A stretch of DNA of 24,000 nucleotides from assembly GCF_001277235.1 (NCBI RefSeq), contig NZ_CP012266.1:4211398-4235397 (forward strand), written 5' to 3'. Shown here in pieces: positions 746 to 24,000 of the stretch. A program made the position numbers and the translations under genes. Each line of letters opens with the position of its first letter. The first letter of the stretch is position 1. The stretch is from Cronobacter dublinensis subsp. dublinensis LMG 23823. Its GTDB lineage: Bacteria; Pseudomonadota; Gammaproteobacteria; Enterobacterales; Enterobacteriaceae. Under the pieces are notes generated by a model, which saw nothing but the letters and a program-made list of their open reading frames with translations, made no database searches and had not been told where the DNA came from.

Positions 746-746
746 G

Positions 747-1916: not shown

Positions 1917-2389
1917 CCCCTTATCTGGCGCCTGGCGCTTATTTACCGCATGAAACCCCGATGCTGCTTCTGGAAAGCGTCCTGACGATAAGCGACAACA
2001 GCGCGCGGTGTCGCGTCACCGTGTCGCCGCAGGGCGTGCTGGCACCGTTTCTGACCGCCGAAGGCGACCTTCCCGCCTGGTACGCGATGGAGCTGATGGC
2101 GCAGACAGTGGGCGTCTGGTCCGGCTGGCACCGCACGACGCGCGGTGAGCCGGGCATCGCGCTCGGCATGATTTTGGGCGTGCGCGACCTGCAATGTCAG
2201 CACAGCGTTTTTGCGCGCGGCAGCGTGCTGGACATCGACGTGACCCTGCTGTTGCAGGATGAAAAATTCGGCAGTTTCGACGCCGTTCTCCACGCCGACG
2301 GGGCGAGCCTCGCCCGTGGACGCATTAATACCTTTCAGCCGGATAACGCCGAGCTGAATCAGCTTTTTTCTCAGGGAGCCTCTACATGA
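1913..2389 (+). CDS. Hotdog-fold 3-hydroxyacyl-ACP dehydratase (FabA/FabZ-like, ApeP-like)
   Basis: A GTG start at 1913 overlaps the KS stop (GTGA), with GGGAGG 5 nt upstream. The N-terminal LPHETPMLLLESVL motif is typical of these dehydratases. Its size (158 aa) and position between the KS and KR genes also fit. Confidence 0.8.
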   Translation: MTPYLAPGAYLPHETPMLLLESVLTISDNSARCRVTVSPQGVLAPFLTAEGDLPAWYAMELMAQTVGVWSGWHRTTRGEPGIALGMILGVRDLQCQHSVFARGSVLDIDVTLLLQDEKFGSFDAVLHADGASLARGRINTFQPDNAELNQLFSQGAST

Positions 2390-3117
2390 GTCGATCAGTT
2401 CTGGTTACCGGAGCCAGCAAAGGCATTGGCCGGGCGATTGCTCGTCAGCTGGCTGCCGACGGTTTTACCGTCGGGGTACATTATCATCGCGACGAAAACG
2501 GCGCGCAGGAGACGCTACGCGCCATCACCGACGCCGGCGGCACGGGGCGTCTGCTCTGTTTCGACGTCAGCCAGCGTGACGCGTGCCGTGCCACGCTTGA
2601 AGCCGATATTGAACGCCACGGCGCCTGGTATGGCCTCGTCAGTAACGCGGGCATCACCCGGGACGGCGCGTTTCCGGCGCTCAGCGACGATGACTGGGAC
2701 GCGGTTATCCATACCAATCTCGACAGTTTTTATAACGTGGTGCAGCCCTGCATTATGCCGATGATCGCCGCCCGTCAGGGGGGAAGGATTGTGACGGTCT
2801 CTTCCGTCTCCGGGATCATGGGCAATCGCGGGCAGGTTAACTACAGCGCGGCCAAAGCGGGCATTATCGGCGCGACGAAAGCGCTGGCGATCGAGCTTGC
2901 GAAGCGCAAAATCACCGTCAACTGCATCGCGCCTGGCCTGATTGACACCGGCATGATTGACATGGAAGAAGCGGCCTTAAAAGAAGCGATGAGCATTATC
3001 CCGATGAAACGCATGGGCCAGGCCGACGAAGTCGCGGGCCTCGCCAGCTATCTGATGTCCGATATCGCGGGCTACGTTACCCGCCAGGTCATCTCCATCA
3101 ACGGGGGAATGCTATGA
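2386..3117 (+). CDS. 3-oxoacyl-ACP reductase, FabG-like SDR (ApeQ-like)
   Basis: It carries TGASKGIGRAIA (the Rossmann TGxxxGxG motif), NAGI, S...YSAAK catalytic residues and a C-terminal INGGM. The start has an ATGA overlap with the upstream gene. Confidence 0.9.
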   Translation: MSRSVLVTGASKGIGRAIARQLAADGFTVGVHYHRDENGAQETLRAITDAGGTGRLLCFDVSQRDACRATLEADIERHGAWYGLVSNAGITRDGAFPALSDDDWDAVIHTNLDSFYNVVQPCIMPMIAARQGGRIVTVSSVSGIMGNRGQVNYSAAKAGIIGATKALAIELAKRKITVNCIAPGLIDTGMIDMEEAALKEAMSIIPMKRMGQADEVAGLASYLMSDIAGYVTRQVISINGGML

Positions 3118-4343
3118 TGCGCCGCGTTGTTATTACCGGAATGGCGGGCGTCACAGCCTTTGGTGAGACCTGGCAGGCGGTGGCCGCGCGTCTGAAAGCG
3201 GGCGAAAACGCCGTGCGCAAAATGCCGGAATGGCAGGTCTACGACGGGCTGCATACCCTGCTGGGCGCGCCCGTCGATGATTTCGTGACGCCGGATCACT
3301 ACACCCGTAAACGCATCCGCTCGATGGGCAGAGTGTCGCTGATGTCTACCCGCGCGACGGAGCTGGCGCTGGAGATGGCGGGCCTTATCGACGACCCCGT
3401 GCTGACCAGCGGCGAAACGGGCATCGCCTACGGCTCATCGACCGGCAGCACCGGCCCGGTGAGCGAATTCGCGACTATGCTGACGGAGAAACACACCAAC
3501 AATATTACCGGCACCACGTATGTCCAGATGATGCCGCACACCACCGCCGTGAATACCGGGCTTTTCTTCGGGCTGAAAGGACGCGTGATCCCCACCTCCA
3601 GCGCCTGTACCTCCGGCAGCCAGGCCATCGGTTACGCCTGGGAGGCTATCCGCCACGGTTATCAGACTGTCATGGTGGCGGGCGGCGCAGAAGAGTTATG
3701 CCCTTCCGAAGCGGCGGTCTTCGACACCCTCTTCGCCACCAGCCAGCGCAACGAGGCCCCGAAAACCACGCCCGCGCCGTTCGATAAAGACCGCGACGGC
3801 CTGGTCATTGGCGAAGGCGCCGGAACGTTAATTCTGGAAGAGCTGGAGCACGCGAAAGCGCGCGGCGCCACTATTTACGGGGAGATCGTCAGCTTTTACA
3901 CCAACTGCGACGCCGCGCATATTACGCAGCCGCAGCGCGAAACGATGCAGATTTGCATTGAACGTGCGTTATCGATGGCGGCGCTTACGCCACAGGACAT
4001 CGGGTATATCTGCGCTCACGGCACCGCCACCGACCGGGGCGATATCGCCGAAACGCAGGCCACCGCCGCTGTATTCGGCGAGCACACGCCAATTTCTTCG
4101 CTGAAAAGCTATTTCGGCCACACGCTTGGCGCGTGCGGCGCGCTGGAGGCGTGGATGAGCCTCGAAATGATGCGTGAAGGCGCGTTCGCGCCGACGCTTA
4201 ACCTGCGTCAGCCGGATGACCAGTGCGGCGCGCTCGATTACATCATGCATGCGCCGCGCGCTATCGACTGCGAATTTATTCAGACGAACAACTTCGCGTT
4301 TGGCGGTATTAACACCTCGCTGGTGTTGCGTCGCTGGCCTTAA
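3114..4343 (+). CDS. Beta-ketoacyl-ACP synthase, FabB/FabF-like (ApeR-like KS)
   Basis: The motifs are active-site Cys in TSSACTSGSQA, His in AAHITQP and CAHGTATDRGD, KSYFGHTLGACG, and NNFAFGGINTSLV. The start has an ATGA overlap with the reductase stop. Confidence 0.9.
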   Translation: MMRRVVITGMAGVTAFGETWQAVAARLKAGENAVRKMPEWQVYDGLHTLLGAPVDDFVTPDHYTRKRIRSMGRVSLMSTRATELALEMAGLIDDPVLTSGETGIAYGSSTGSTGPVSEFATMLTEKHTNNITGTTYVQMMPHTTAVNTGLFFGLKGRVIPTSSACTSGSQAIGYAWEAIRHGYQTVMVAGGAEELCPSEAAVFDTLFATSQRNEAPKTTPAPFDKDRDGLVIGEGAGTLILEELEHAKARGATIYGEIVSFYTNCDAAHITQPQRETMQICIERALSMAALTPQDIGYICAHGTATDRGDIAETQATAAVFGEHTPISSLKSYFGHTLGACGALEAWMSLEMMREGAFAPTLNLRQPDDQCGALDYIMHAPRAIDCEFIQTNNFAFGGINTSLVLRRWP

Positions 4344-4345
4344 CC

Positions 4346-4963
4346 GTGCTGCGTGTCGTTATCGGCGAGACCGCCTCGCTGTGCTCGCCGCAGGCGGCGG
4401 CGCGCTGGCTTTCGCCCGCATTGCTGGCGCAACAACCGACGGGCCCGCGTCAGGCGAGCTGGCTTGCCGGGCGCATTATGCTGGCCTGGGCTATCGGTAC
4501 GCCTGCCCTGCCGCCGCTTGGGGAAAACCAGAACGGTAAGCCCTGTTTAGCGCACGATTCTGGGCTGGCCTTTAATCTCAGCCATAGTGACGGCGTGGTG
4601 GCGCTGGCATTAAGTGACGCCGGCGAGGTGGGCTGTGATATTGAAAGGATCCGGGCGCGCCGACGCGTGCAGCCCCTCGCGCAGGCGATTTTCAGCGACG
4701 AGGAGCAGGCAATGCTGTCTGCGCTGCCCGCTGAAGCCAGGCTGCCCGCGTTCTGGCAGTGCTGGACCCGGCGCGAGGCGCTTATCAAGCAACGCGCAGG
4801 CACCGTCTGGGAACTCCTGCAGACGCCGCAAAGCGTCACGGCGTCTGACACCGTTTTTATCAGCGACTGTCGCTGGCGGGATCTGCACATCGCCGTTTGC
4901 GCATCCGCGCCGTATGCCCCTCTTGAGCGGCATCTGGAATACCTGACGCCCACCTCGCTGTAG
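4346..4963 (+). CDS. acpT: 4'-phosphopantetheinyl transferase AcpT
   Basis: A GTG start lies 2 nt after the KS stop. The product aligns by eye with my recollection of E. coli AcpT: MLRVVIGE... versus MYRIVLGK..., then WLAGR, FNLSHS, LSDAGEVGCDIE and WTRREALIKQRAG. Confidence 0.85.
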   Translation: MLRVVIGETASLCSPQAAARWLSPALLAQQPTGPRQASWLAGRIMLAWAIGTPALPPLGENQNGKPCLAHDSGLAFNLSHSDGVVALALSDAGEVGCDIERIRARRRVQPLAQAIFSDEEQAMLSALPAEARLPAFWQCWTRREALIKQRAGTVWELLQTPQSVTASDTVFISDCRWRDLHIAVCASAPYAPLERHLEYLTPTSL

Positions 4964-4967
4964 ACGG

Positions 4968-5474
4968 TCACACCACGCGGCGCGCGGCGAGATAACGGAC
5001 GCGCCAGTAGCGGTTGCTCAGGCTGGAAATGGTCACGCCTTTCTCTTTCGAGGCGTGGATAAACTGGTCGTCGCCGATATACACGCCCACATGGCGCTGG
5101 CGCGGGCCGGTGTTGAAAAACACCAGATCGCCCGGCTGCAGCGCCGTTTTTCTTACCGCTCTGCCCTCCCTGATCTGCGCCTGCGTGGTGCGCGGCAGCG
5201 CGACGCTCGCCGATTCGGCAAACAGGTGCTGCATCAGCGCCGAGCAGTCGACGCCGCGGCGGGTCGTGCCGCCTAAGTGATAGCGGGTGCCTTTCCAGCT
5301 GCCGTAGCGGCTTAGCAGCGCGCTTTTCAGCCGCGGCGGCGGCGCATCGTGATGAAAGTGGTATGAGACATCCGTGTTTGTGCCCTGGTCATGCCAGGCG
5401 TTCGGTAGCGCCGCGCTGAACGCCGGCGCAGAGAGCAAAGCGGCAAAAGAAAAAATCATCAATAAAAAACGCAT
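4968..5474 (-). CDS. Secreted NlpC/P60-family peptidoglycan endopeptidase
   Basis: An internal ATG at 5474 gives MRFLLMIFSFAALLSAPAFSA, a Sec signal peptide with no lipobox Cys. The catalytic Cys is in RRGVDCSALM, with His in RHVGVYIG and FIHAS, and the C-terminus is NlpC-like (YWRVRYLAARRV). I rejected the 40-codon N-terminal extension to 5594 because it is not signal-like. Confidence 0.85.
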   Translation of the reverse strand: MRFLLMIFSFAALLSAPAFSAALPNAWHDQGTNTDVSYHFHHDAPPPRLKSALLSRYGSWKGTRYHLGGTTRRGVDCSALMQHLFAESASVALPRTTQAQIREGRAVRKTALQPGDLVFFNTGPRQRHVGVYIGDDQFIHASKEKGVTISSLSNRYWRVRYLAARRVV

Positions 5475-5865
5475 CGTGGTCACTAACGTTGTGTGTTGCT
5501 GTTCCCTACCCGGCAGGAAACCCGCTCCTGATGGGCTTCCTGTTACGGGGCGCAACGTTAACGACTGGCGATAAATTAGACTATCGACTCTCACTACATT
5601 CGCTTGTTACTCCACTTTCATTGCCCGCCGCACGGCGCGCATAAGCCCTTCATCCGCCAGCGCATAAACGCCTTTTTTACGCGCCAGGCCCTTCTTTTTA
5701 TGGGATTTTTACACCGACGCCCCCCTGAAAACGCTAGCCTTTGACCATCGCCCGAGCGGCTCTGAAGAAGCGTAACCTATGTTTTCCTTTGCTCTTACTC
5801 CCTGGTTCAAACCCCGCAGCCCGAGCCTCTCCTCCGGCCGCGTCTCATCCACGCAGGAACCGATC

Positions 5866-7206
5866 ATGTTCTCCACGTTGCTGAATACCTGGATGCTGGC
5901 GGGTACGCCTGACGGCGTCGGCGTACCGTTTCGCCAGGAGGCCGAGGCGTATTTGCGGGACTACCCGCACACCCGCCACGTCGATATTTACCTGCACGAT
6001 CTCAACGGCTGCCGTCGCGGTAAGCGCGTCAGCGTGGAGAGCCTGCGCGCGCTGGCGCAGGGCTGCTATTTCCCGCAGTCCGTCTATGAAATGGATAACG
6101 AAGGACAGGTGATTGCGGGCGCCGCGGCGCAACGCGAGCCTGACCGGCTCTGCCTGCCGGTCAGCGGCACGCTGCGCCCGTGCGCGGGCGATCCTGAGCA
6201 TCACGCCCAGCTGCTGCTCTCCATGCAAAGCCCGGACGGCGCAGGCTGCCCGCTGGAGCCGCGCGTGGTGCTGGAGCGGCTGCTGGCGACGTTTCACGCC
6301 CGTGGTTTGTACCCGGTCATGGCGCCGGAAGTGGAGTTCTATTTGCAGGCCGCAGACGGCGCCGCGCCGACATCGCGCTGTTTTGATGTCGACATGCCCG
6401 GGCGCGACAACGCGCTGCTGGAGGCGATGGAAACCGAAGCCCGCCGTCAGGGCCTGCCGCTGTGCGGCATCGTCGCGGAGGCCGAGGCGGGCCAGTTTGA
6501 GCTGAATTTTCGCCACAGCAGTCGCGTGGTGGCGCTCTGCGATAGGGTACTGGCGGCCCGACGGCTGGTGCATCAGGTGGCGGAAAAACAGGGCTACTAC
6601 GCCAGCTTTATGGCCAAGCCCCGGTCGGCGCTCGCGGGCAGCGGCCTGCACTTTCATATCAGCCTGAACGACGCGCAGGGCAATAATCTGTTCGCAAGCG
6701 AAGAGGGCCAGCCGAACGTCATGATGCGCCGCAGCCTGAGCGGCCTGCTGGCGCTGATGCCGGCAAGCGTCGCGCTGGTGACGCCCGGCGCTAACGCCTT
6801 CCGGCGGCTGCGCAAGAGCCTGAACGAACCGCTGTTCTCCTCCTGGGGCTATAACGACCGCTCGGCGGCGCTGCGTCTGCCGTGCGCCGATGCCGCGAGT
6901 CAGCGCATCGAATATCGGCTCGCGAGCGCGGACGCCAACCCGTATCTCGTGGCGGCGGCGGTGCTGGCGGGCGTGCTCTATGGGCTCGATCACCCGCTTA
7001 CGCTGCCGCAGGCCGGCTCAGTGGCCGGTCTGCCCGCCCTGCCGCTGTTCTGGCCGGACGCGCTGGCGCGTTTTCAGGAGGCCGACTGGCTGCGCAAACA
7101 ACTGGGCGCGCCGTTCAGCGACGCCTGGATCGCCTGCAAGCGTCAGGAGCTGGCCCGGTTCGAAAGTGAAGTCACCGACGCGGAAAAACGCGCGCATCGT
7201 CATTAA
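5866..7206 (+). CDS. Glutamine synthetase family protein (PuuA-like gamma-glutamyl ligase type)
   Basis: The GS catalytic-domain motifs appear intact: PEVEFYL, GSGLHFHISL, NAFRRL, WGYNDRSAALRLP and RIEYRLASADANPYL. I preferred the ATG at 5866 (AGGAA 7 nt upstream) over the 5779 ORF start. Confidence 0.85.
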   Translation: MFSTLLNTWMLAGTPDGVGVPFRQEAEAYLRDYPHTRHVDIYLHDLNGCRRGKRVSVESLRALAQGCYFPQSVYEMDNEGQVIAGAAAQREPDRLCLPVSGTLRPCAGDPEHHAQLLLSMQSPDGAGCPLEPRVVLERLLATFHARGLYPVMAPEVEFYLQAADGAAPTSRCFDVDMPGRDNALLEAMETEARRQGLPLCGIVAEAEAGQFELNFRHSSRVVALCDRVLAARRLVHQVAEKQGYYASFMAKPRSALAGSGLHFHISLNDAQGNNLFASEEGQPNVMMRRSLSGLLALMPASVALVTPGANAFRRLRKSLNEPLFSSWGYNDRSAALRLPCADAASQRIEYRLASADANPYLVAAAVLAGVLYGLDHPLTLPQAGSVAGLPALPLFWPDALARFQEADWLRKQLGAPFSDAWIACKRQELARFESEVTDAEKRAHRH

Positions 7207-7227
7207 TCACGCAAAAAGAGGTGAGTC

Positions 7228-8625
7228 ATGTCTCGCTTAGTCATGATATCCAGCCGCTGCGGCGTACCGCACGGCGCCGACGCGCAGGCGGAAGCCCTGC
7301 ACGACATTATGCGCCAGCGCGGCGGCCTGTGGATGGGCTGGAGCGGCGCTATCGGCCTCGCGGGCGCGCCGCGCCAGGTCAGCGTGCGGGACACCGCCGG
7401 TTATACGCGCCAGCGCTGGTCGATGTCGCCCACGGAGTACGCCGACTACTATCACGGCTATGTGCACCAGGCGTTGTGGCCGGTGTTTCATAACCGGCCC
7501 GATCTCGCCACCCACCCGAAGCGCGCGTTTTGCGCCTATAAAGCCTGGAACGAGGCGGTGGCGGAGATGGCGACGGATGAGATCTGCCCGGATGACGTGG
7601 TCTGGGTGCAGGATTACCATCTCATTCCTCTCGGGCGCTGCCTGAAGGAGGCAGGTCTGCTGAACCCGTGCGGCTTCTTTTTGCATCAGCCGTTTCCGCC
7701 AGGCGACGTCTTCAGAACGCTGCCGGAGCATGACTGGCTGATGCGCTCGCTCTTTTTCTACGATCTGATTGGCTTTCAGTCGGGCAGCGATGTGAACAAC
7801 TTTTTGCTCTGCGTCATGCGCCACTACCGCACGGAGCGGCTCTCCGCCACCACGCTTCGCGTTAACGGCCATATCATTAACGTCGGCGTCTTTCCCTGCG
7901 GCGTGGCGACGGCGCGCCCGGCCCGCCACGCGCCGCTGACCGGCAAATATCCGCGCCAGCTTATCGTCAGCGACGATGTGATAAACGACATCAGCGGCAT
8001 TCATTACCGCATCGACGCCATGCGCAGCCTGCTGAATAACCATCCGCACTATCTGCGCGACGTGACGCTGCTGCAAATGAGCGATCCGGCCAAAGAGTAC
8101 CCGCATTTTTCACCGCGGCTGGAGCAGCAGCTGGCGCGCTTTTGCAGCGAGGTAAACGGCGCTTTCGGCGATCTCAGCTGGTTTCCGGTTAATTATCTGC
8201 ATAACGACGCGCTGAACCGCCGCGCCGTCGCCGGGATTTACGGCCGCGCCAGAGTGGGACTGTTTACGCCGCTGTCAGAAGGCGTGAGCCTGAGCGCTAA
8301 AGCGTATGTGCTGGCGCAGGACCCGGCCGATCCGGGCGTGCTGATCCTCTCCCAGTTCACCGGCACGGCAGAGCAGCTTAAAGGCGCGATCATCGTGAAC
8401 CCGTATGACGCGCACGAGCTTAGCGAGGCGCTGCACTCGGCGCTCGCCATGCCGCTTGCGGAGCGCAGACAGCGACATGCCGCGCTGCTGATGCAGGTGC
8501 GCCAGTATGATAGTCAGTGGTGGGCGGGCGCGTTTCTCGACGCGCTGGAGGGCGAGCCTGGCGCGGGCGCGTCACATCGGCTGACGCGCCAGTACGGCAT
8601 TTTCACGCCGCAGAATCTCTACTGA
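7228..8625 (+). CDS. Glycosyltransferase family 20 (OtsA / trehalose-6-phosphate synthase-like) protein, divergent
   Basis: It is collinear along its full length with E. coli OtsA as I recall it: MSRLV..S.R, GGLW.GWSG, LWP.FH, QDYHL, GFFLH.PFP, YDL.GFQ, TPL..G..L.AK.YV.AQDP..PGVL.LSQF.G and IVNPYD. GAGG precedes the ATG. The gene starts 22 nt after the GS-like stop, so the two probably form an operon. Confidence 0.85.
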   Translation: MSRLVMISSRCGVPHGADAQAEALHDIMRQRGGLWMGWSGAIGLAGAPRQVSVRDTAGYTRQRWSMSPTEYADYYHGYVHQALWPVFHNRPDLATHPKRAFCAYKAWNEAVAEMATDEICPDDVVWVQDYHLIPLGRCLKEAGLLNPCGFFLHQPFPPGDVFRTLPEHDWLMRSLFFYDLIGFQSGSDVNNFLLCVMRHYRTERLSATTLRVNGHIINVGVFPCGVATARPARHAPLTGKYPRQLIVSDDVINDISGIHYRIDAMRSLLNNHPHYLRDVTLLQMSDPAKEYPHFSPRLEQQLARFCSEVNGAFGDLSWFPVNYLHNDALNRRAVAGIYGRARVGLFTPLSEGVSLSAKAYVLAQDPADPGVLILSQFTGTAEQLKGAIIVNPYDAHELSEALHSALAMPLAERRQRHAALLMQVRQYDSQWWAGAFLDALEGEPGAGASHRLTRQYGIFTPQNLY

Positions 8626-13606: not shown

Positions 13607-15649
13607 TCAGCCCTGAATGCCATAGTGTTCCAGCATCGCGTCGAGCTGCGGTTCGCGGCCACGGAAGCGTTTGAACAGCTCCATCGGCTCTTCGGAGCCG
13701 CCGCGCGTCAGGATGTTATCGAGGAACGACTGACCGGTATCGCGGTTGAAAATCCCCTCTTCTTCGAAGCGGGAATAGGCGTCCGCCGCCAGCACGTCGG
13801 CCCACAGATAGCTGTAGTAACCCGCCGCGTAGCCGCCCGCGAAAATATGGCTAAAGGCATGCGGGAAGCGGCCCCAGGTCGGGCCCGGCACCACGGCGAC
13901 CTGCTTTTTGATCTCCGCGAGGGTTTCCAGCACTTTCGCGCCCTGCTCCGGGCTGAACTGCGCGTGCAGGCGGAAGTCGAACAGGCCGAACTCCAGCTGG
14001 CGCAGGATAAACATCGCCGCCTGATAGTTTTTCGCCGCCAGCATTTTATCCAGCAGCTCCTGCGGCAGCGGCTCGCCGGTTTCAAAATGACCGGAGATAA
14101 ACGCCAGCGCGTCCGGCTCCCAGCACCAGTTTTCCATAAACTGGCTCGGCAGCTCGACCGCATCCCACGGCACGCCGCTGATGCCCGCGACCCCTGGGGT
14201 TTCGATGCGGGTCAGCATATGGTGCAGGCCGTGACCGAACTCATGGAACAGCGTGATCACTTCGTCATGGGTAAACAGCGCCGGTTTGCCGCTCACCGGG
14301 CGGTTAAAGTTACAGGTGAGGTACGCCACCGGTTTTTGCAGCGAGCCGTCCGCTTTACGCATCTGGCCGACGCAGTCATCCATCCACGCCCCGCCGCGCT
14401 TGTTTTCCCGTGCGTAGAGGTCAAGGTAGAAGCTGCCGCGCAGCTCGCCGCTCTCGTCATAAAGCTCGAAGAAGCGCACGTCCGGGTGCCAGACGTCGAT
14501 ATCTTTGCGCTCTTTAGCGCTGATGCCGTAAATGCGTTTAACCACTTCGAACAGGCCGTTAACGGCTTTGTTTTCCGGGAAATAGGGGCGCAGCTGTTCA
14601 TCGCTAATGCTGTAGAGATGCTGCTTCTGTTTTTCGCTGTAATACGCGATATCCCAGGGTTGCAGCTCGTCGACGCTAAAATGTTCTTTTGCGTAGGCGC
14701 GCAGCTGGGCGAGCTCTTTTTCACCCTGCGGCCGGGCGCGTTTGGCCAGATCGGTTAAGAATTCCAGCACCTGCTGCGGGTTTTCCGCCATTTTGGTGGC
14801 GAGCGATTTTTCCGCGTAACTGTCAAAGCCCAGCAGTTGCGCCAGTTCGTGGCGCAGCGCCAGGATCTCTTCCATCACCGGCGTGTTATCCCATTTGCCA
14901 GCGTTCGGCCCCTGGTCGGAGGCGCGGGTGCTGTAGGCGCGGTACATCTCTTCACGCAACGCCTGGTTGTCGCAGTAGGTCATCACCGGCAGATAGCTTG
15001 GGATATCCAGCGTCAGCAGATAACCCTCTTGCTCTTTGGCTTCGGCCATGGCTTTAGCCGCCGCCAGCGCGCTTTCCGGCATGCCGGAGAGTTCAGACTC
15101 ATCGGTCACGAGCTTCGTCCAGCCCTGCGTCGCGTCCAGCACGTTATTGCTGTAGAGCGAGCCCAGCTCGGAGAGACGCGCCGCGATTTCGCCGTAACGT
15201 TTCTGTTTGTCTTTCGGCAGACCGATGCCGGAAAGCTCGAAGTCGCGCAGCGCGTTATCGACCGCTTTTTTCTGGGCGGTGTCGAGTTTCGCGTAGTTGT
15301 CGCCGTCGCGTAAATCGCGATACGCCTGGTAAAGCCCTTCGTGCTGGCCCACCCAGGTGCTGTATTCAGAGAGCAGCGGCAGCGTCTGCTCATAGGCTTC
15401 GCGAAGCTCAGGGCTGTTTTTCACGGAATTCAGATGGCTTACCGGAGAGAAAATACGGCCCAGTCGGTCGTCGGTCTCCGCAAGCGGCTGGCAAAGCGAT
15501 TCCCAGCTGTAAGGCGCGCCGCGGCTGACGACCGCCTCCACCTGCGCCCGGCACGCTTCCAGCGCTTTCGTCACGGCTGGCACCACGTGCTCGGGTTTAA
15601 GGGAGGAAAACGGCGGCAGTTCAAAAGGCGTCAGTAATGGATTGGTCAT
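13607..15649 (-). CDS. prlC: Oligopeptidase A (M3 zinc metallopeptidase)
   Basis: An internal ATG at 15649 gives [15 protein letters not shown]..., 680 aa as in E. coli PrlC, with the zinc motif HEFGHGLHH. Confidence 0.95.
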
Positions 15650-15706
15650 AAGCGCGTCCTGATTAGTGTTGGTTAAGCGCATCTTGCAGCGACAATGTCT
15701 TGTAGC

Positions 15707-15733
15707 ATGGGGTTTAGTGTAGTTAATTTCAAT
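15707..15733 (-). promoter_or_regulatory. Sigma32 (heat-shock) promoter of prlC-rsmJ
   Basis: The minus strand reads ATTGAAA, then the 14-nt spacer TTAACTACACTAAA, then CCCCATGC. The consensus is CTTGAAA-N13-15-CCCCATNT. The -10 element ends about 57 nt upstream of the prlC ATG. prlC belongs to the E. coli sigma32 regulon. Confidence 0.65.
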
Positions 15734-15842
15734 GCCCCGCGCTGGGCTTTACCCGTTGAGCGCACGCATCCCGTAAGCGGTCACTTTCCGGTATACTGTT
15801 CAAAATCGATGTTCATTTACGCCTTTTGGAAACCCATCCCGC

Positions 15843-16685
15843 ATGCTCAGTTATCGCCACAGCTTCCACGCCGGAAACCACGCCGACGTCCTCAAACACA
15901 CCGTCCAGAGCCTGATCATTGAGTCGCTCAAAGAGAAGGACAAACCGTTTCTGTATCTGGACACCCATGCGGGCGCCGGGCGCTATCAGCTGAGCGGCGA
16001 GCACGCCGAGCGCACGGGCGAATATCTGGACGGCATCGCGCGTATCTGGCAGCGGGATGACCTGCCCGCCGAGCTTGAGCCCTACATCAGCGCGGTGTCG
16101 CATTTCAACCGCAGCGGCCAGTTGCGCTACTACCCTGGCTCACCGCTTATCGCGCGCCAGCTGCTGCGCCCGCAGGACAGCCTGCAACTCACCGAGCTGC
16201 ACCCAAGCGACTTCCCACTGCTGCGCGGCGAATTTCAGAAAGACGACCGCGCCCGCGTTGAGCGCGCCGACGGCTATCAGCAGCTGAAATCCAAACTGCC
16301 GCCCGCCTCACGCCGCGGCCTGATCCTTATCGACCCGCCCTATGAAATCAAAACCGACTACCAGGCGGTGGTTCAGGGCATCAACGAAGGCTATAAGCGC
16401 TTTGCGACCGGCATTTACGCGCTCTGGTATCCGGTAGTGTTGCGTAATCAGATCAAGCGTATGCTGAATGACCTGGAAGCCACCGGCATCCGCCGTATTC
16501 TGCAAATCGAGCTGGCGGTGCGTCCTGACAGCGATCAGCGCGGCATGACCGCCTCCGGCATGATTGTTATCAACCCGCCGTGGAAGCTGGAGCAGCAGAT
16601 GGCGAACGTTCTGCCTTGGCTGCATCAGGCGCTGGTGCCGGCGGGCATCGGCCACACCACGCTGAAGTGGGTCGTGCCGGAGTAA
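15843..16685 (+). CDS. rlmJ: 23S rRNA (adenine2030-N6)-methyltransferase RlmJ (YhiR)
   Basis: MLSYRHSFHAGNHADVLKHTVQSLIIESLKEKDKPFLYLDTHAGAGRYQL and the IDPPYE motif match E. coli RlmJ. Synteny agrees: it is divergent from prlC and upstream of gor. Confidence 0.95.
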   Translation: MLSYRHSFHAGNHADVLKHTVQSLIIESLKEKDKPFLYLDTHAGAGRYQLSGEHAERTGEYLDGIARIWQRDDLPAELEPYISAVSHFNRSGQLRYYPGSPLIARQLLRPQDSLQLTELHPSDFPLLRGEFQKDDRARVERADGYQQLKSKLPPASRRGLILIDPPYEIKTDYQAVVQGINEGYKRFATGIYALWYPVVLRNQIKRMLNDLEATGIRRILQIELAVRPDSDQRGMTASGMIVINPPWKLEQQMANVLPWLHQALVPAGIGHTTLKWVVPE

Positions 16686-16759
16686 TCGCAGCCATAGATG
16701 GACCCTTTTTCCGTCAGCACTACAATTGCGTTAATTCGAATCATTAAAAGGTAACAGCC

Positions 16760-18112
16760 ATGACCAGACACTACGACTACCTCGCCATCGGCGGCGGCAG
16801 TGGCGGTATCGCTTCTGTCAACCGCGCCGCTATGTACGGCCAGAAATGCGCCCTGATTGAAGCCAAAGCGCTGGGCGGCACCTGCGTCAATGTCGGCTGC
16901 GTACCGAAAAAAATCATGTGGCACGCCGCGCAAATCGCCGAGGCTATCCACCTTTACGGCCCGGATTACGGCTTTGACACCACGGTGAACCATTTCGACT
17001 GGCAGAAGCTGGTGGCGAGCCGCACCGCCTATATCGACCGTATCCACACCTCATACGACAACGTGCTCGGCAAAAATAATGTCGATGTGATTCAGGGGTT
17101 CGCCCGCTTTGTGGACGCGCATACCGTTGAAGTGAACGGCGAGCGGATCACGGCCGATCATATCCTGATCGCGACCGGCGGTCGTCCGAGTCACCCGGAT
17201 ATTCCAGGCGCGGAATATGGCATCGATTCTGACGGATTCTTCGCGCTGTCGGCGATGCCGCAACGCGTGGCGGTGGTAGGCGCGGGGTATATCGCCGTTG
17301 AGCTTGCGGGCGTTATTAACGCGCTGGGCGCGCAAACGCACCTGTTCGTGCGCAAGCACGCGCCGCTGCGCACGTTCGATCCGATGCTTTCTGAAACGCT
17401 GGTGGAAGTGATGCAGGCCGAAGGCCCGCAGCTGCACACCCACGCGACGCCGACATCAGTGGTGAAAAACAGCGACGGTAGCCTGACGCTGACGCTGGAA
17501 GACGGGCGTGCTGAAACCGTGGACGCGCTGATCTGGGCGATTGGCCGCGAGCCGGAAACCGACAACTTCAACCTGTCGGCAACGGGCGTCAAAACCAACG
17601 AAAAAGGCTACATCATCGTTGATAAATACCAGAATACGAACGTGCCGGGGATTTATGCGGTGGGCGACAACACCGGCGCGGTCGAACTGACGCCGGTCGC
17701 GGTCGCCGCGGGCCGTCGTCTCTCCGAGCGTCTGTTTAACAACAAGCCGGATGAACATCTCGATTACAGCAATATTCCGACCGTGGTGTTCAGCCATCCG
17801 CCGATCGGCACCGTCGGGCTGACCGAGCCGCAGGCGCGCGAGCAGTATGGCGACGCGGAGGTCAAAATCTATAAGTCGTCGTTTACCGCGATGTACACCG
17901 CCGTCACCTCGCACCGCCAGCCGTGCCGTATGAAGCTGGTGTGCGTCGGGCCGGAGGAGAAAATCGTCGGCATCCACGGCATCGGTTTCGGTATGGACGA
18001 AATGCTGCAGGGCTTCGCGGTGGCGCTGAAGATGGGCGCGACCAAAAAAGACTTCGACAACACGGTCGCCATCCACCCGACAGCGGCGGAAGAATTTGTG
18101 ACCATGCGTTAA
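16760..18112 (+). CDS. gor: Glutathione-disulfide reductase
   Basis: The motifs are [15 protein letters not shown], the redox-active [13 protein letters not shown], and a C-terminal [12 protein letters not shown]. The length is 450 aa. Confidence 0.95.
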
Positions 18113-18132: not shown

Positions 18133-18165
18133 AAAAATCAGGGGAGGCATCAGCCTCCCCTTTTT
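18133..18165. terminator. Bidirectional rho-independent terminator between gor and the convergent 534-aa gene
   Basis: A stem pairs AGGGGAGGC (18140-18148) with GCCTCCCCT (18153-18161) around an ATCA loop. TTTTT lies downstream and AAAAA upstream. Confidence 0.8.
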
Positions 18166-18177
18166 ACTGCCCTGCGC

Positions 18178-19782
18178 TTAGCGGATCGTCTGGTAAATCG
18201 CCTCGCGGATTTTCACCCACTTTTTCGTCTCTTCGCCGGGGTTCGCCTGGGCGCGCAGCTGCGCCTGTTCAAGCTCATATTTCTGGCGCTGCACCACCAC
18301 CGGCACAGTACAAAACGCCTGCAAATATTGCTTACGCATCGACGTCATCTTTTCGCCCTGCGACAGCGCGTGGCTGAGCGTCGTTATCATGCGCCGACAC
18401 GGTTTAAGCTCATCCATCTGCAGGCGATAACGCAGCAGGGTTTCCAGCGTCGCTTCATGATTTTTGGCGAGCGCCTGCTCGGTCCAGGCCACCTTCCAGT
18501 TCATCCCGGCTTCTAAAAAGAGGCGCGTCACCACGGCGTCATCACGATCGATAGCGGCGCGCAGGTTCCCTTGATCCCAGGTAATGCCCATATTGCTGAG
18601 CTTATGGCGCGGGCTGTCGTCGCTATTTTCCGGCTCGGCGGCCATCGCGGTGGCGACCGGCATTGTCGCGTTACGCTCCGCCGCGGGCGGGTTGAGGGAA
18701 TCGCTGGCGATAAACAACCCGCCGACCACCAGCGCGATAGCGCCGAGGCCCACCGCGCCCCACACCGCGCTCATCACCAGCTGGCGGGTCTCCTGCTTTT
18801 TGCCGTCCTGGCGTCGGCTCGGGCTTTCGATGGCGTCGCGCACGTCAAAAATATCGCCGCCGACCACGCTGTTTTTCTTCGCCGCATGGTCGAAAAACGT
18901 TTTCAGCTGCGCGTCGTCAGCTTTCATCAGCGCGGCAGGGTTAACGCGCGTGCGCCCCTCGCCGCAGGCTTTATGCAGCGGTGCGCTGATGGCGTTGAAA
19001 TAGTTATCCAGCATCACTTCCTGCGCGCCGGAGAGCGGTTTGCCGAGCGCGGCGGTATTACGGATATCGCGGATGTCATCCAGCAGCGTTTGCAGGGTTT
19101 TACGCGGCTCGACGAACAGCGTCAGCGAGGTCGCGCCCTGGAAAAGCCGGTCGTAGTGGCGGGCGAAGAGTTTTTTGTCCACCACCAGCATCGCCAGCTC
19201 GCTGAACAGCATGCCGCTCAGCACGTCGCCCTTGTCGCCCATTTTCAGCCAGCGACGCACTTTATCGCCGCCGCACAGCTGCTTCAGCTCATTGACGCGC
19301 TGCTGTTCGTCGGGCCATGTTTCACGCACCATGCCGCGCAGCGTCAGATCCAGCGCGCGCAGCTGGCGCAGCGCTTCTCCCTGCTTCGCGTCTTTATTCA
19401 CGTCCATATCGGTGGAGTAACCGAGCTTCGGCTGCTGGTTGCGCACCTTCTCAAGGCAGGTCACGAAGCGCAGCGCGGCGAGAAGCTGGTTCTCAGTCAC
19501 ATCCTGACCGCTCTCATATTGCGGCACCAGCTGCTGTAAATGACGCAGTTGCAGGGTGAACTGCGACATGTCGGCGTCGTTGAGGTTAAGGCGTCGGGCG
19601 ACGGTCGCCCAGTTGCCGAGATTCAGGCGCGCCTGGTCGAGCTGTTGTAAAAACCACTGCGGATCTTTTCCTTCCGCGACGTTAACGCCTAGCAAAACCA
19701 GGATCTCAACCGACGCCTGACGAATCACCGTCAGCGCAGTTTCAAACGTTTCTCTTACCAGAGGCTGTGTGGAGCGGGCCAT
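18178..19782 (-). CDS. Membrane-anchored protein of unknown function with an N-terminal Swt1-like HEPN-type domain (degenerate Rx4-6H motif), one TM helix and a C-terminal ankyrin-like region
   Basis: This is a 534-aa ORF with AAGGA 7 nt upstream of the ATG. Residues ~140-270 follow the Swt1-like HEPN pattern and end in IRNTAALGKPLS. A single hydrophobic helix spans residues 335-359, preceded by SRRQDGKKQETRQ. Residues ~400-455 look ankyrin-repeat-like. The domain calls come from by-eye pattern recognition only. Confidence 0.75.
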   Translation of the reverse strand: MARSTQPLVRETFETALTVIRQASVEILVLLGVNVAEGKDPQWFLQQLDQARLNLGNWATVARRLNLNDADMSQFTLQLRHLQQLVPQYESGQDVTENQLLAALRFVTCLEKVRNQQPKLGYSTDMDVNKDAKQGEALRQLRALDLTLRGMVRETWPDEQQRVNELKQLCGGDKVRRWLKMGDKGDVLSGMLFSELAMLVVDKKLFARHYDRLFQGATSLTLFVEPRKTLQTLLDDIRDIRNTAALGKPLSGAQEVMLDNYFNAISAPLHKACGEGRTRVNPAALMKADDAQLKTFFDHAAKKNSVVGGDIFDVRDAIESPSRRQDGKKQETRQLVMSAVWGAVGLGAIALVVGGLFIASDSLNPPAAERNATMPVATAMAAEPENSDDSPRHKLSNMGITWDQGNLRAAIDRDDAVVTRLFLEAGMNWKVAWTEQALAKNHEATLETLLRYRLQMDELKPCRRMITTLSHALSQGEKMTSMRKQYLQAFCTVPVVVQRQKYELEQAQLRAQANPGEETKKWVKIREAIYQTIR

Positions 19783-20052
19783 GTTGCATCCTTTTCACGC
19801 TCAACGCCCCGCAAAAAACGCGAACAGGGCGGGCGAAATTTCACTTAAGTATATTGTTATTTCTGAATTTTTTGTCTGCGCTGACAGGCAGTGAAACAAC
19901 ATAACCCAAAATGGCCGGAAAAAAAGCGACAGCGCGGTTTTCGCGTGAAAAATCGTCGTTTCCTGCCTGAATTAGCAGGGAACGGACGCGACGGGTGACA
20001 GCGGCGCGTTTTTCGGGCAAGACTGTTTTTCTATTCCCCCGACGGAGCCACT

Positions 20053-20625
20053 ATGCACCCCGAGACGCCTTTTCATGACGCCCTGCTGACGTTCGGGTCA
20101 GCCAGCCTCAGTTACCGGCCCATTACGCCCGACGACTGGCCGTTCTTTTTAAGCCTGCAACGCGACGACAACGTCATGCGTTTTGTAACCGACCCGCGCA
20201 CTGACGCGCAGCGAATGCAGGATTTCGCCGCGCGCCTGCCGCCCTGGACGCCGCAAAGCACCCGCTGGCTCTGTTTGCTGATCCGCGAGACGCACAGCGG
20301 TCTGCCGGTGGGCGTAACGGGGTTTGTGATGCGCGGCGACGGCATTGCGGAGGTCGGGTTTCTGCTCAGCAGCGCCTTTCAGGGGCGCGGCTATGGCTAT
20401 GAGTCGCTGCGCGCGGTTTGTCGCTTAGCGTTTGAGACGTGCGGGCTGCGTCGGCTGGTCGCGACCGTGACCGGCGGCAATATCGCCTCGAAGAAAACGC
20501 TGGAGAAAGCCGGGTTTATCCAGGAAGGCACGCTGCGGGAGAGCTATTACCTCGGCGGGCGCTGGCACGACGACTGGCTGTTCGGCCTGCTGGCGCGCGA
20601 CTATTTACCGGAAAGTGAATTCTGA
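20053..20625 (+). CDS. GNAT family N-acetyltransferase (RimJ/RimL-like)
   Basis: The acetyl-CoA binding region is FQGRGYGYESLRAVCRLAFE. The RimJ/L-like tail is LRRLVATVTGGNIASKKTLEKAGFIQEGTLRESYYLGGRWHDDWLFGLL. GGAG lies upstream of the ATG. Confidence 0.85.
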   Translation: MHPETPFHDALLTFGSASLSYRPITPDDWPFFLSLQRDDNVMRFVTDPRTDAQRMQDFAARLPPWTPQSTRWLCLLIRETHSGLPVGVTGFVMRGDGIAEVGFLLSSAFQGRGYGYESLRAVCRLAFETCGLRRLVATVTGGNIASKKTLEKAGFIQEGTLRESYYLGGRWHDDWLFGLLARDYLPESEF

Positions 20626-23093: not shown

Positions 23094-24000
23094 ATGACCA
23101 CGCCGGAGCAGCCTGCAAAACGCCCGACTGAAGATTTGAAATATCAGCCTGTCCCGCAGCTGGACACCCGCCCGCAAGAGAAGAAAACCGACGACAAACC
23201 CGCAGAGGGCGTTATCGGCACGGTGAAAGAGAAAGTGGAACAAGTGGAGCGTCGTCCGGCGGTCGCCCATCTGCTCCGCGCTTTTGAGCGTTTTAACGAG
23301 CGCATGGGCAACCAGTTTGGGGCCGCCATTACCTATTTTTCGTTTTTATCGATGATCCCGGTGCTGATGGTGACTTTCGCGGTAGCGGGCTTTATCCTCG
23401 CCTCGCACCCGACGCTGCTGCAGGATCTCTTCAATAAAATCCTGCAAAGCGTGAGCGATCCGACGCTTGCCAAAACGCTCAGCAGCAGTATTAACGCGGC
23501 GGTGGAGCAGCGCACCACGGTCGGCATCGTCGGGTTCGCCGTCGCGCTCTATTCCGGCGTTAACTGGATGGGCTATCTGCGCGAGGCGATCCGCGCCCAG
23601 TTTCGTGACGACTGGGAACGCGGCGCCGTTGAGGATAAAGAAAAGTTCTGGGTGAAGTACCTGCGCGATTTTATCTCGCTGATTGGGCTGCTGGTGGCGC
23701 TGGCCATTACGATGTCGATTACGTCCGTGGCGGGCTCGGCGCAGGAAACCATCATTCGCCTGCTGCATCTGGACGCCATCGGCTGGCTGAAGCCGGTCTG
23801 GCATCTGATTGGCCTTGCCGTCTCCTTCTGCGCTAACTATTTGCTGTTCTTTTGGATCTTCTGGCGTCTGCCGCGCCATCGCCCGCGTAAAAAAGCGCTG
23901 CTGCGTGGCACCGTGATCGCCGCTATCGGCTTTGAGGTTATCAAAATCATCATGACCTACACTCTGCCGTCGCTGGTGAAATCGCCGTCCGGCGCGGCAT
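23094..24000 (+). CDS. yhjD: Inner membrane protein YhjD (YihY/BrkB family), 5' portion running off the window
   Basis: This is absent from the ORF track because there is no stop in the window. The ATG at 23094 opens a frame that stays open to nt 24000. LRAFERFNERMGNQFGAAITYFSFLSMIPVLMV...FWVKYLRDFISLIGLL...NYLLFFWIFWRLPRHRPRKKALLRGT...GFEVIKIIMTYTLPSLVKSPSGAA matches E. coli YhjD closely. Confidence 0.9.
   Translation, partial: MTTPEQPAKRPTEDLKYQPVPQLDTRPQEKKTDDKPAEGVIGTVKEKVEQVERRPAVAHLLRAFERFNERMGNQFGAAITYFSFLSMIPVLMVTFAVAGFILASHPTLLQDLFNKILQSVSDPTLAKTLSSSINAAVEQRTTVGIVGFAVALYSGVNWMGYLREAIRAQFRDDWERGAVEDKEKFWVKYLRDFISLIGLLVALAITMSITSVAGSAQETIIRLLHLDAIGWLKPVWHLIGLAVSFCANYLLFFWIFWRLPRHRPRKKALLRGTVIAAIGFEVIKIIMTYTLPSLVKSPSGAA

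Follow-up and report, generated by a model that had tools for sequence, protein, structure and literature searches.

In the KEN-domain proteins Ire1 and RNase L, a sensor, a transmembrane (TM) segment and a kinase domain are followed by a HEPN RNase. The HEPN survey of Anantharaman (2013; PMC3710099) compared TM-bearing HEPN proteins with the Ire1-type arrangement, and its Swt1-like row includes the entry 'Fusions to TM (STY4199)', which is labelled 'active'. The same survey describes the HEPN domains of Swt1 and MtlR as catalytically inactive, and proposes for them RNA binding or sensing, or a regulatory role. Two further systems combine a HEPN domain with membrane-type segments, namely Csx28 of type VI-B CRISPR, in which hydrophobic segments accompany a divergent HEPN (bioRxiv 10.1101/092577), and a HEPN-TM immune system reported on PICIs (PMC12948488). 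In the literature on STY4199, STM3604 and PF18729 we found only the 2013 survey and one transcript list.

We compared these systems with a gene of Cronobacter dublinensis that lies in a 24,000-nt stretch of DNA (hereafter the window, by which we mean the whole of the stretch that was analysed). A sequence-only reading had described this gene as a monocistronic orphan, bounded by a bidirectional terminator and a 270-bp divergent region and encoding a membrane-tethered, Swt1-like HEPN protein of 534 aa with a degenerate catalytic motif. The features needed for the comparison are listed here, with the basis of each call in brackets.

18140-18161, no strand assigned: bidirectional intrinsic-terminator-like hairpin, common to the convergent gor gene (terminator scan)
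18178-19782, minus strand: coding sequence of the 534-aa STY4199-family HEPN membrane protein (ORF list, Pfam, near-identical named protein)
18181-18597, minus strand: C-terminal all-helical domain, residues 396-534, predicted to be periplasmic (model, conservation)
18598-18705, minus strand: low-complexity linker, residues 360-395, predicted to be periplasmic (pLDDT below 50; dN/dS)
18706-18780, minus strand: single transmembrane helix, residues 335-359 (hydropathy)
18781-18825, minus strand: basic juxtamembrane stretch SPSRRQDGKKQETRQ, residues 320-334 (K/R counts)
18928-19407, minus strand: HEPN core, residues 126-285, predicted to be cytoplasmic (conservation, dN/dS)
19039-19071, minus strand: degenerate motif R238-D-I-R241-N242-T-A-A-L246-G-K248 (gap-free alignment, ~100 representatives)
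19045-19047, minus strand: codon CTC for Leu246, which stands where the catalytic His would be (sequence read)
19408-19782, minus strand: N-terminal helical region, residues 1-125 (Pfam, model, dN/dS)
19783-20052, no strand assigned: divergent intergenic region of 270 bp, towards the GNAT gene (sequence)
20053-20625, plus strand: divergent neighbour, a GNAT (Acetyltransf_3) acetyltransferase (Pfam; context only)

The 534-aa ORF, which starts with ATG and ends in a stop codon at 18178-18180, was borne out both by the ORF list and by a Pfam match far above cut-off, and a Shine-Dalgarno sequence (AAGGA, 19789-19793) is located 6 nt upstream of it. Its flanks were also as described: the hairpin on the side of gor has a 9-bp stem with 7 GC pairs and T-runs on both strands, and 270 bp separate the ORF from the divergent GNAT gene. 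A scan of this intergenic region called no consensus sigma-70 site, and alignment of the upstream regions from 8 genera showed a semi-conserved TGTCAC...TATGTT element at ~19898-19933. No Rfam families were found in the window.

The protein matched the Pfam family PF18729 (HEPN_STY4199) with an E-value of 1.1e-129 and a score of 432.3 bits against a cut-off of 25, and the match ran from end to end of the model (residues 1-282 on model positions 1-282 of 282). No NCBIfam model matched it; a C. dublinensis protein that is 99% identical carries the NCBI name 'STY4199 family HEPN domain-containing protein'. The HEPN call is correct, and the family had already been catalogued in the 2013 survey (PMC3710099). 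The impression of an unknown protein had to be corrected, as the named Pfam family and the NCBI protein name both apply to it. Full-length orthologues of 526-546 aa, covering ~100% of the window protein, were present in at least 160 species representatives. PF18729 was matched by 64/64 diverse relatives, two of which also touched PF18731 (HEPN_Swt1), which, with the Swt1-like row of the survey, agrees with the Swt1-like assignment. The window protein shares its HEPN-plus-TM architecture with the PF18729/STY4199 family and falls in one clade with its Salmonella orthologue, STM3604, which occupies the same chromosomal site in that genus. STM3604 has been filed under chemotaxis or motility in one microarray table (PMC11000858) that holds no functional data on it, and we rejected such a role. 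Among 5,426 complete genomes of E. coli, none had a DNA-level match to the gene.

We then considered the layout of the protein. Residues 1-125, which were predicted to be structured (pLDDT ~85-94), fall within the Pfam model here and are missing or variable in distant relatives, whose Pfam match begins near model position 95. In the HEPN core that follows, R142, L188, G190, R238, R241 and N242 are kept family-wide; nearly all relatives have Glu at position 145, where the window protein has Asp, and about half of the Enterobacteriaceae clade carries Lys in place of R149. Residues 335-359 form the only strong hydrophobic peak (Kyte-Doolittle 2.27), so that the protein has the HEPN domain and TM segment of the 'Fusions to TM (STY4199)' entry, and W341 and G345 within this helix are conserved. 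Five K/R residues flank the helix on its N-terminal side versus one on its C-terminal side. The hydropathy profile and this charge bias, read by the positive-inside rule, support the single-pass, N-in/C-out topology that had been proposed. Beyond the linker, residues 385-534 were modelled with high confidence (pLDDT 95, pTM 0.84). Cys462 (18397-18399) and Cys491 (18310-18312) are invariant and, together with G426, M427 and W429, are conserved in both His-bearing and His-less relatives; the two cysteines may form a periplasmic disulfide. A Foldseek search of the full model against PDB gave no significant match and no HEPN structure, and profile HMMs of the whole family and of the HEPN core returned only coiled-coil or TM noise from PDB sequences.

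The C-terminal region had also been credited with two ankyrin-like repeats. Although the quoted strings are present in the sequence, the label was supported by neither Pfam nor Foldseek. Ank models at E<=10 matched neither the window protein nor its C-terminal fragment nor 18 orthologues. When the model of the C-terminal domain was compared with PDB by Foldseek, nothing was found at E<=0.001 and no ankyrin was among the top 50 matches listed, the best of which, designed helical repeats and TPRs, had TM-scores <=0.36. With hhalign, the 65-residue repeat region of this domain was compared with a real, Pfam-verified ANK region, where LRAAIDRDDAVVTRLFLEAGMN aligned on LHEAVSRSNVVLARILLEAGAD, and with an approximate consensus ANK sequence, where ALAKNHEATLETLLR aligned on AAREGHLEIVEVLLK. 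These alignments were in register but not significant (E-values 0.06 and 0.03, probability <2%). The repeats of the window protein are ~27-30 residues long, and the ankyrin consensus repeat is ~33. In some distant family members the TM helix is followed by true ANK or TPR repeats, and in two distant relatives sub-threshold matches to Ank_2 were located just after this helix.

Estimation of dN/dS (NG86, 60 pairs) gave 0.068 overall, with 0.042 for the N-terminal segment, 0.079 for the HEPN core, 0.067 for the C-terminal domain and 0.17, the highest value of any segment, for the linker (residues 360-395). Across 81 sequences, 127 columns were >=95% conserved, including the Cys pair. The gene order orf177-LysR-SDR-(BOF)-GNAT<>HEPN-...-gor was found in 78/80 species loci, and in 66 of the 80 the GNAT gene adjoined the HEPN gene. 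In other genera, treF is among the neighbours. Apart from L065, for which a shortened reconstruction of 491 aa was obtained, these 80 loci had a full-length HEPN gene with unchanged start and stop, and no frameshifted copies were seen among them. Identity between genera was 50-57% for the HEPN protein, versus 88% for the nearby gor. The neighbourhood survey revealed no conserved operon partner at the species loci, in agreement with the description of the gene as an orphan. Carriage on plasmids or phages was considered and rejected, as the matches in those collections appear to be chromosome pieces filed there (a 607-kb 'plasmid', Salmonella whole-genome contigs and unannotated 'phage' fragments of 1.5-3.8 kb), and no relative was found in IMG/VR.

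The central difference from the described family lies in the catalytic motif, whose family consensus is R-x-I-R-N-x-x-A-H-[HN]-K. Reading of the sequence confirmed R241-N-T-A-A-L246 and the CTC codon at 19045-19047. L246 aligned without gaps on the His of IRNxxAH[HN]K in ~100 distant relatives as well as in the named relatives, which establishes that Leu stands in the canonical His position, as had been claimed. Of the ~100 distant representatives whose alignment covers the motif, one has Arg in this column (P0201) and all others have His, as do 14/14 of the long-form relatives discussed below. The window protein has no His 4-6 residues after R238 or R241, again as the sequence-only reading had stated. 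By the Rx4-6H test, the Arg is present and the His absent; the description 'active' does not fit this protein, and its membership in the sequence family is unaffected.

Alignment of the homologues, which had been suggested as a check, showed that the change is not specific to the strain. The His is lost throughout the genus Cronobacter and in nearly the whole Enterobacteriaceae clade, where it was missing in 79/80 species loci; only 3 of the 124 closest sequences kept it. In Salmonella, every recovered cluster, one of which has 2,692 member sequences, carried Ala in this column. STY4199 is labelled 'active' in the literature, whereas the window protein, nearly all Enterobacteriaceae orthologues and all recovered Salmonella clusters lack the His of Rx4-6H. 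In an NJ tree (distance-based and without support values), His was confined to a Dryocola/Cedecea-like subclade, scattered there among Q, E, M and A, which suggests that it was lost repeatedly within the Enterobacteriaceae.

One alternative is that the protein is still an active RNase or a toxin, in which the conserved arginines, the asparagine and other residues replace the lost His. R238 and R241 were each found in 124/124 of the closest sequences and N242 in 120/124, purifying selection on the HEPN core is strong (dN/dS 0.079), and the 2013 survey, besides labelling the STY4199 TM fusion 'active', allows alternative active-site residues in some motif-less HEPN families (PMC3710099). Because R238, R241 and N242 stay conserved, some residual or altered catalysis may be possible. 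However, the His column of the same 124 sequences is hypervariable, with hydrophobic residues in the majority (V 65, A 37, L 5, plus others), and the H/N and K that follow it in the motif are likewise unconstrained, so that positions 246-248 are all variable in the Enterobacteriaceae clade. No other conserved His was found in the cytoplasmic part, N242 too has been lost in Phytobacter, Kosakonia and Yokenella, which have S, A, T, L or G there, and no antitoxin-like or immunity-like gene is adjacent. We consider it unlikely that an RNase or toxin activity has been retained.

Relatives with an intact motif provide a second comparison. Long-form STY4199-family proteins of 619-664 aa, found in Paraburkholderia, Pseudoduganella, Kosakonia sp. 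R1.Fl and metagenomes, have RNxxAH[HN]K, with H246, H247 and K248 invariant or nearly so. Like the window protein, they have a HEPN domain, a TM segment and then a helical domain at the C-terminus that contains GMxW and two Cys, and their identity to it is 33-40% for the HEPN core and 20-35% for the C-terminal domain. They differ from it by keeping H-H/N-K, by a C-terminal extension of ~85 aa and by almost always adjoining a partner gene of ~700 aa, all of which the window gene lacks. A homologue of this partner (695-725 aa, with a hydrophobic C-terminal membrane anchor) adjoined the His-bearing HEPN in 7/8 of the contexts that were looked up, and at 6/6 close metagenomic partner loci the neighbour was a HEPN gene, with an intact IRNRLAHH in five and the motif off the contig in the sixth. 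With three partner proteins as tblastn queries, no homologue was detected in the 24-kb window or within +/-8 kb of the gene in 81 His-less loci. The partner had no match in Pfam, NCBIfam or PADLOC, its profile found no relative among PDB sequences, and we found no published description of a two-gene module consisting of a HEPN gene and a ~700-aa partner.

These relatives also bear on the possibility that the gene encodes a single-gene anti-phage protein of the abortive-infection type, acting through the membrane and not by RNA cleavage. HEPN domains are typical of Abi, TA and CRISPR-associated effectors (PMC3710099), the His-bearing relatives weakly match AbiD, PD-T4-5 and Cas13a models, and a Paraburkholderia relative (L082) adjoins a transposase gene, an NTase-conflict gene and a KAP NTPase gene. 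Csx28 and the PICI HEPN-TM system, like the window protein, pair a HEPN domain with hydrophobic or TM segments. However, those two proteins are small and their genes lie in CRISPR loci or on mobile islands, whereas the window gene is chromosomal and syntenic and its product is much larger, with a predicted periplasmic domain. None of the families in PADLOC-DB 2.0 matched the window protein at E<=10, the gene occupies one conserved, housekeeping-flanked site in 78/80 species and not a variable defence island, and searches revealed no copies on true plasmids, on phages or in IMG/VR. Its vertical inheritance and low dN/dS are unlike those of typical fast-turnover defence genes, and most contexts of the His-bearing relatives other than L082 consist of ordinary metabolic genes. 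A present anti-phage function thus appears quite improbable.

That the gene is an evolutionary relic, left without present function by a decaying defence or toxin module, is highly improbable: both the catalytic His and the adjacent partner gene are indeed lost, identity between genera is well below that of gor and E. coli has no DNA-level match to the gene, but the values of dN/dS (0.04-0.08 in all structured segments) largely refute this reading. Also against it are the full length and constant start and stop at every one of the 80 loci except L065, the lack of frameshifts among them and the 127 near-invariant columns with their periplasmic Cys pair. The earlier suggestion of a 'decayed or repurposed defence module' consequently stands in part: 'decayed' is wrong, because dN/dS is ~0.07 and the gene is full-length and syntenic, and 'repurposed' fits, with a defence origin weakly suggested.

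The reading that we prefer, with a probability of roughly 0.6, is that the window protein is a bitopic inner-membrane STY4199 HEPN protein with a periplasmic domain, a catalytically dead pseudo-RNase that has been repurposed for a non-cleaving role. It is probably no longer an RNase, because the His and the usual partner gene have been lost and yet selection preserves the gene. The N-terminal ~330 residues, comprising the helical region and the Swt1-like HEPN core, would lie on the cytoplasmic side, the helix of residues 335-359 would cross the membrane once, and an all-helical domain of ~140 residues with two invariant cysteines would be exposed in the periplasm. The ancestral form would have had RNxxAH[HN]K, surviving today in Burkholderiales and in sporadic Kosakonia-like strains, and would have been encoded beside the membrane-anchored partner of ~700 aa. 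In the Enterobacteriaceae lineage from which Cronobacter, Enterobacter, Citrobacter and Salmonella descend, the gene would have become fixed in the gor/treF region, on its LysR-SDR-GNAT side, with the partner no longer adjacent, and the constraint on His-His-Lys would then have been lost, apparently several times, with the two arginines remaining invariant and Asn242 nearly so.

As to what the protein does now, we infer a sensing or RNA-binding role. The HEPN domain may bind RNA or a phosphate-bearing ligand, or it may instead serve as a dimerising scaffold at the inner membrane face that is controlled by the periplasmic domain; either would amount to an Ire1-like sensor-TM-HEPN arrangement from which the nuclease step is missing. 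A more specific proposal, which is tentative and which we regard as possible and not as probable, is that the protein is a domesticated pseudo-RNase derived from an undescribed two-gene membrane module. This module would consist of a HEPN-TM-periplasmic RNase and the C-terminally anchored partner of ~700 aa, and would still be active in a conflict or stress response in Burkholderiales and a few enterobacteria. After loss of the partner and the His, the protein would have acquired a new conserved role in which a periplasmic cue is converted to a cytoplasmic output through binding of RNA or another ligand.

The preferred reading, that of a repurposed pseudo-RNase, can be set beside two of the kinds of system with which we began. 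The Swt1 and MtlR HEPN domains resemble the window protein in that the motif was lost and the domain kept, but they are soluble, whereas it is membrane-anchored with a predicted periplasmic domain. Swt1 also carries a fused PIN domain, and MtlR has a link to the mannitol operon, whereas no operon is linked to the window gene. The likeness to Ire1 is one of logic, in which an extracytoplasmic domain would be joined through one TM helix to a dimeric cytoplasmic HEPN, and it is an analogy only, as there is no sequence relationship beyond the superfamily. Ire1 and RNase L have a kinase domain and carry HEPN at the C-terminus, whereas the window protein has no kinase match in Pfam, its HEPN is N-terminal and its catalytic His is absent.

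The gene is conserved in important enterobacteria, including Salmonella (STM3604), Enterobacter, Citrobacter and Cronobacter, and the sole description in the literature treats the STY4199 form as an active membrane-bound RNase. Because the canonical His is gone almost clade-wide while selection remains strong, our analysis recasts this protein as a probable pseudo-enzyme. The Dryocola/Cedecea-like lineage, which varies between His and other residues at this position, offers a natural experiment, and the conserved, unannotated partner of ~700 aa in the intact relatives defines a concrete two-gene module for testing. No major paradigm is changed by these findings, which would instead open a family so far present only in annotation to direct and cheap experiments.

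We assigned the 534-aa window protein to the STY4199-like HEPN family of Pfam, PF18729, which covered residues 1-282 over its whole 282-position model (E=1.1e-129, 432 bits, cut-off 25 bits); a C. dublinensis protein with 99% identity carries the NCBI name 'STY4199 family HEPN domain-containing protein'. Support for the HEPN assignment comes from this curated family, from the RN...H motif kept in relatives, from weak matches of two relatives to PF18731 (HEPN_Swt1), and from weak matches of His-bearing relatives to AbiD, PD-T4-5 and Cas13a models. The HEPN call made from the sequence alone was therefore right, as was its Swt1-like flavour, since the Swt1-like row in the table of the 2013 HEPN survey (Anantharaman 2013, PMC3710099) reads 'Fusions to TM (STY4199), active'. 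The suggestion of an unknown family was mistaken, as the family is catalogued, named by NCBI and included in that survey, its sole mention in the literature searched. PADLOC and NCBIfam gave no match for the window protein. Full-length orthologues of 526-546 aa were found in Enterobacter, Leclercia, Lelliottia, Siccibacter, Atlantibacter, Buttiauxella, Citrobacter, Salmonella, Kosakonia and others, the Salmonella orthologue being STM3604 according to an annotated Salmonella record. The window protein is an ordinary member of a catalogued, experimentally untouched family. A non-significant match to the Pfam Death domain PF00531 (E=0.88) was seen in its N-terminal helical region (residues 57-105, window 19468-19614, minus strand), and recurred in 3/19 orthologues (best E=0.055).

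Features of the gene and its flanks (window coordinates)
18140-18161: 9-bp G+C-rich hairpin with T-runs on both strands, 3' of the HEPN gene
18178-19782, minus strand: 534-aa ORF, ATG start
19805-19835, minus strand: imperfect G+C-rich inverted repeat, CGCCCGC ... T6 ... GCGGGGCG
19898-19933, minus strand: semi-conserved element TGTC(A/G)C...N~22...TATGTT

The peptide strings quoted in the sequence-only reading were all found in this ORF, which is preceded at 6 nt by a Shine-Dalgarno sequence (AAGGA). The hairpin lies between the gene and gor, the convergent gene for glutathione reductase, and on the upstream side a GNAT acetyltransferase gene runs divergently, 270 bp away. The inverted repeat lies in the presumed 5' leader, immediately 5' of the Shine-Dalgarno sequence. 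The TGTC(A/G)C...TATGTT element, ~115 nt 5' of the start codon and common to Cronobacter, Siccibacter, Enterobacter, Leclercia and Pseudescherichia, may be a promoter or operator; a scan for consensus sigma-70 promoters did not pick it out.

To evaluate the catalytic motif, 1.84 billion cluster representatives were searched exhaustively; this yielded 199 related clusters, 107 of which entered the motif alignment. The motif region aligned without gaps, and essentially all distant members carried IRNxxAH[HN]K. In the window protein the motif is IRNTAALGK, with Leu246 exactly at the conserved His column, confirming the degenerate motif R241-N-T-A-A-L246, its CTC codon at 19045-19047, and the lack of any His 4-6 residues after R238 or R241.

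Residues at and around the catalytic His column
124 closest sequences, His column: V 65, A 37, Q 6, L 5, S 5, G 3, H 3
Same 124 sequences: R238 and R241 conserved in 124/124, N242 in 120/124
80 species-representative genomes: 79/80 without His, which is kept only in one Dryocola genome
Four Cronobacter clusters: Leu in all
Salmonella enterica clusters (one with 2,692 sequences): Ala in all

As all four Cronobacter clusters carry Leu, the loss of His is genus-wide and not a strain mutation. H246, H/N247 and K248 are all fixed in His-bearing relatives and all unconstrained in the Enterobacteriaceae clade, so that His, His and Lys have been lost while Arg, Arg and Asn are kept; N242 itself is altered in Phytobacter, Kosakonia and Yokenella. 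Judged by clade orthologues, a set without the STY4199 sequence itself, the canonical motif in STY4199's own clade does not bear out the 'active' label of PMC3710099.

In a neighbor-joining tree the His-bearing proteins of 619-664 aa (from Paraburkholderia, Burkholderia, Pseudoduganella, metagenomes and a Kosakonia sp./Erwinia sp. group) fell outside the Enterobacteriaceae clade of 526-546-aa proteins. Within that clade a Dryocola/Cedecea-like subclade was alone in retaining His, there mixed with Q, E, M and A, and the Cronobacter-Enterobacter-Citrobacter-Salmonella subclade had none. This tree, which carries no support values, suggests an initial relaxation of constraint on the His, followed by loss of the residue on several occasions. 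Selection clearly maintains the protein: at least 95% conservation was seen at 127 columns (81 sequences), and pairwise dN/dS was low.

Pairwise Nei-Gojobori dN/dS by region (60 orthologue pairs)
Overall: 0.068
N-terminal region: 0.042
HEPN core: 0.079
Juxtamembrane segment: 0.051
TM helix: 0.075
Disordered periplasmic linker: 0.17
C-terminal domain: 0.067

An overall value of 0.068 and 127 near-invariant columns showed that 'decayed', one of two descriptions offered earlier, was wrong; the other, 'repurposed', we judged to be apt.

The sole hydrophobic segment comprises residues 335-359, with five K/R on its N-terminal flank vs one on its C-terminal flank, in agreement with the earlier topology claim; this single hydropathy peak and charge bias would place the protein in a single-pass, N-in/C-out orientation. 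Residues 385-534 were confidently modeled as nine helices (pLDDT 95, pTM 0.84). G426-M427-x-W429, C462 and C491 are conserved in both His-less and His-bearing relatives, indicating that the C-terminal domain is ancestral, and C462 and C491 could form a disulfide provided that the domain is periplasmic. Its ankyrin label was unsupported by direct tests: Ank profiles gave no match at E<=10 in the window protein, its C-terminal fragment or 18 orthologues, and no ankyrin structure was among the top 50 Foldseek matches listed against the PDB, the top ones listed being weak and to TPR and designed helical repeats. By hhalign, the two strings previously taken for ankyrin repeats were in register with ankyrin helices, not significantly. 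The region past the TM helix varies in the wider family, some members carrying bona fide ANK (Ank_2, E=4.5e-61) or TPR repeats, SH3 or CsgG domains, and two members had sub-threshold Ank_2 matches in the segment aligned to residues ~400-429 of the window protein. The domain can be described at most as a repeat of helical hairpins that may be a highly diverged ankyrin.

Characterised HEPN RNases use the His of Rx4-6H for catalysis (PMC3710099), from which we infer that the window protein no longer cleaves RNA. The main rival explanation is residual catalysis via alternative residues; no conserved His occurs elsewhere in the cytoplasmic part. A non-catalytic protein would bind RNA or a phosphate-bearing ligand, or serve as a dimerising scaffold, with the periplasmic domain setting this state via the TM helix. 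Functionally, the closest analogies are with the inactive HEPN domains found in Swt1 and MtlR (PMC3710099), together with the sensor-TM-HEPN layout of Ire1-like type. Among membrane-associated HEPN proteins, Csx28 (10.1101/092577) and the PICI HEPN-TM system (PMC12948488) resemble it in architecture without being detectable relatives.

The gene is not mobile. The upstream order of orf177, a LysR regulator, an SDR and sometimes a BOF protein was the same in 78/80 species loci, and the GNAT gene was on the upstream side in 66/80. Downstream, 0-7 kb of variable DNA, including treF in Enterobacter and Salmonella, precedes gor-rlmJ-prlC-rsmJ, making the HEPN-gor interval a variable insertion point. 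No co-directional neighbour is conserved, so the description 'monocistronic orphan' was fair. We rejected plasmid or phage carriage, as tblastn matches in both collections appear to be filed chromosome pieces; IMG/VR contained no relative. Three unannotated Salmonella/Escherichia 'phage' records of 1.5-3.8 kb (OR851471.1, OR851716.1 and OR845302.1) include fragments of the STM3604-type chromosomal gene and probably represent chromosomal DNA that was transduced or is a contaminant; one is assigned an E. coli O157:H7 host, yet complete E. coli genomes gave no DNA match to the gene.

Several neighbouring genes were also observed. A short lysozyme-like ORF (STM3605) and the LuxR-type yhjB lie directly 5' of the HEPN gene in Enterobacter and Salmonella (L013:6903-7241 and L087:6364-6720, both minus strand), and are missing there in Cronobacter. 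The 177-aa ORF at 23346-23879 (minus strand), syntenic in 78/80 species loci at 41-58% identity, had no Pfam match at E<=0.001. At 693-4963 (plus strand) lies the final part of an aryl-polyene-type cluster for lipid or pigment biosynthesis, with two ketosynthases, an ApeP-like dehydratase, a ketoreductase and a phosphopantetheinyl transferase. NlpC/P60, glutamine-synthetase-like and glycosyltransferase-20 genes come after it (4968-8625).

Among eight His-bearing relatives whose contexts were looked up, seven adjoin a homologous gene encoding 695-725 aa, immediately downstream of HEPN in six cases, sometimes overlapping its stop codon, and convergent in one.

Partner genes beside His-bearing relatives (further partner loci: L091-L096)
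L081:10124-12211, minus strand
L082:9935-12112, plus strand
L083:9875-12025, plus strand
L086:4980-7094, plus strand
L088:3264-5405, plus strand
L089:3432-5546, plus strand
L090:6905-9016, plus strand

The partners are 38-55% identical among themselves, have hydrophobic segments at the C-terminus, and had no Pfam, NCBIfam, PADLOC or PDB relative. Searching metagenome contigs with the partner alignment found an STY4199-family gene at all six close partner loci, with IRNRLAHH intact at five and the motif off the contig at the sixth. Adjacency held in nearly every context examined, and the partner was found neither in the 24-kb window nor at any of 81 His-less loci. The His-bearing HEPN gene and its ~700-aa partner look like an undescribed two-gene module. 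Only the Paraburkholderia context (L082) was defence-island-like, the others being ordinary metabolic neighbourhoods, and a defence role for the module is therefore only a possibility. The L082 surroundings (4344-7810 and 14700-17920) encode a DDE transposase, a DUF7669/NucS_C protein, an 'NTase-conflict' protein and a KAP NTPase.

What is new here is that the catalytic His was lost clade-wide under continued selection, and that a conserved partner accompanies the intact relatives. The Dryocola/Cedecea-like subclade (L044:8001-9629 of Dryocola sp. BD626; proteins P0116, P0118, P0315-P0318, P0324 and P0339-P0348), which occupies the syntenic locus and varies among H, Q, M and E at the catalytic position, provides a natural series for asking whether the His still matters.
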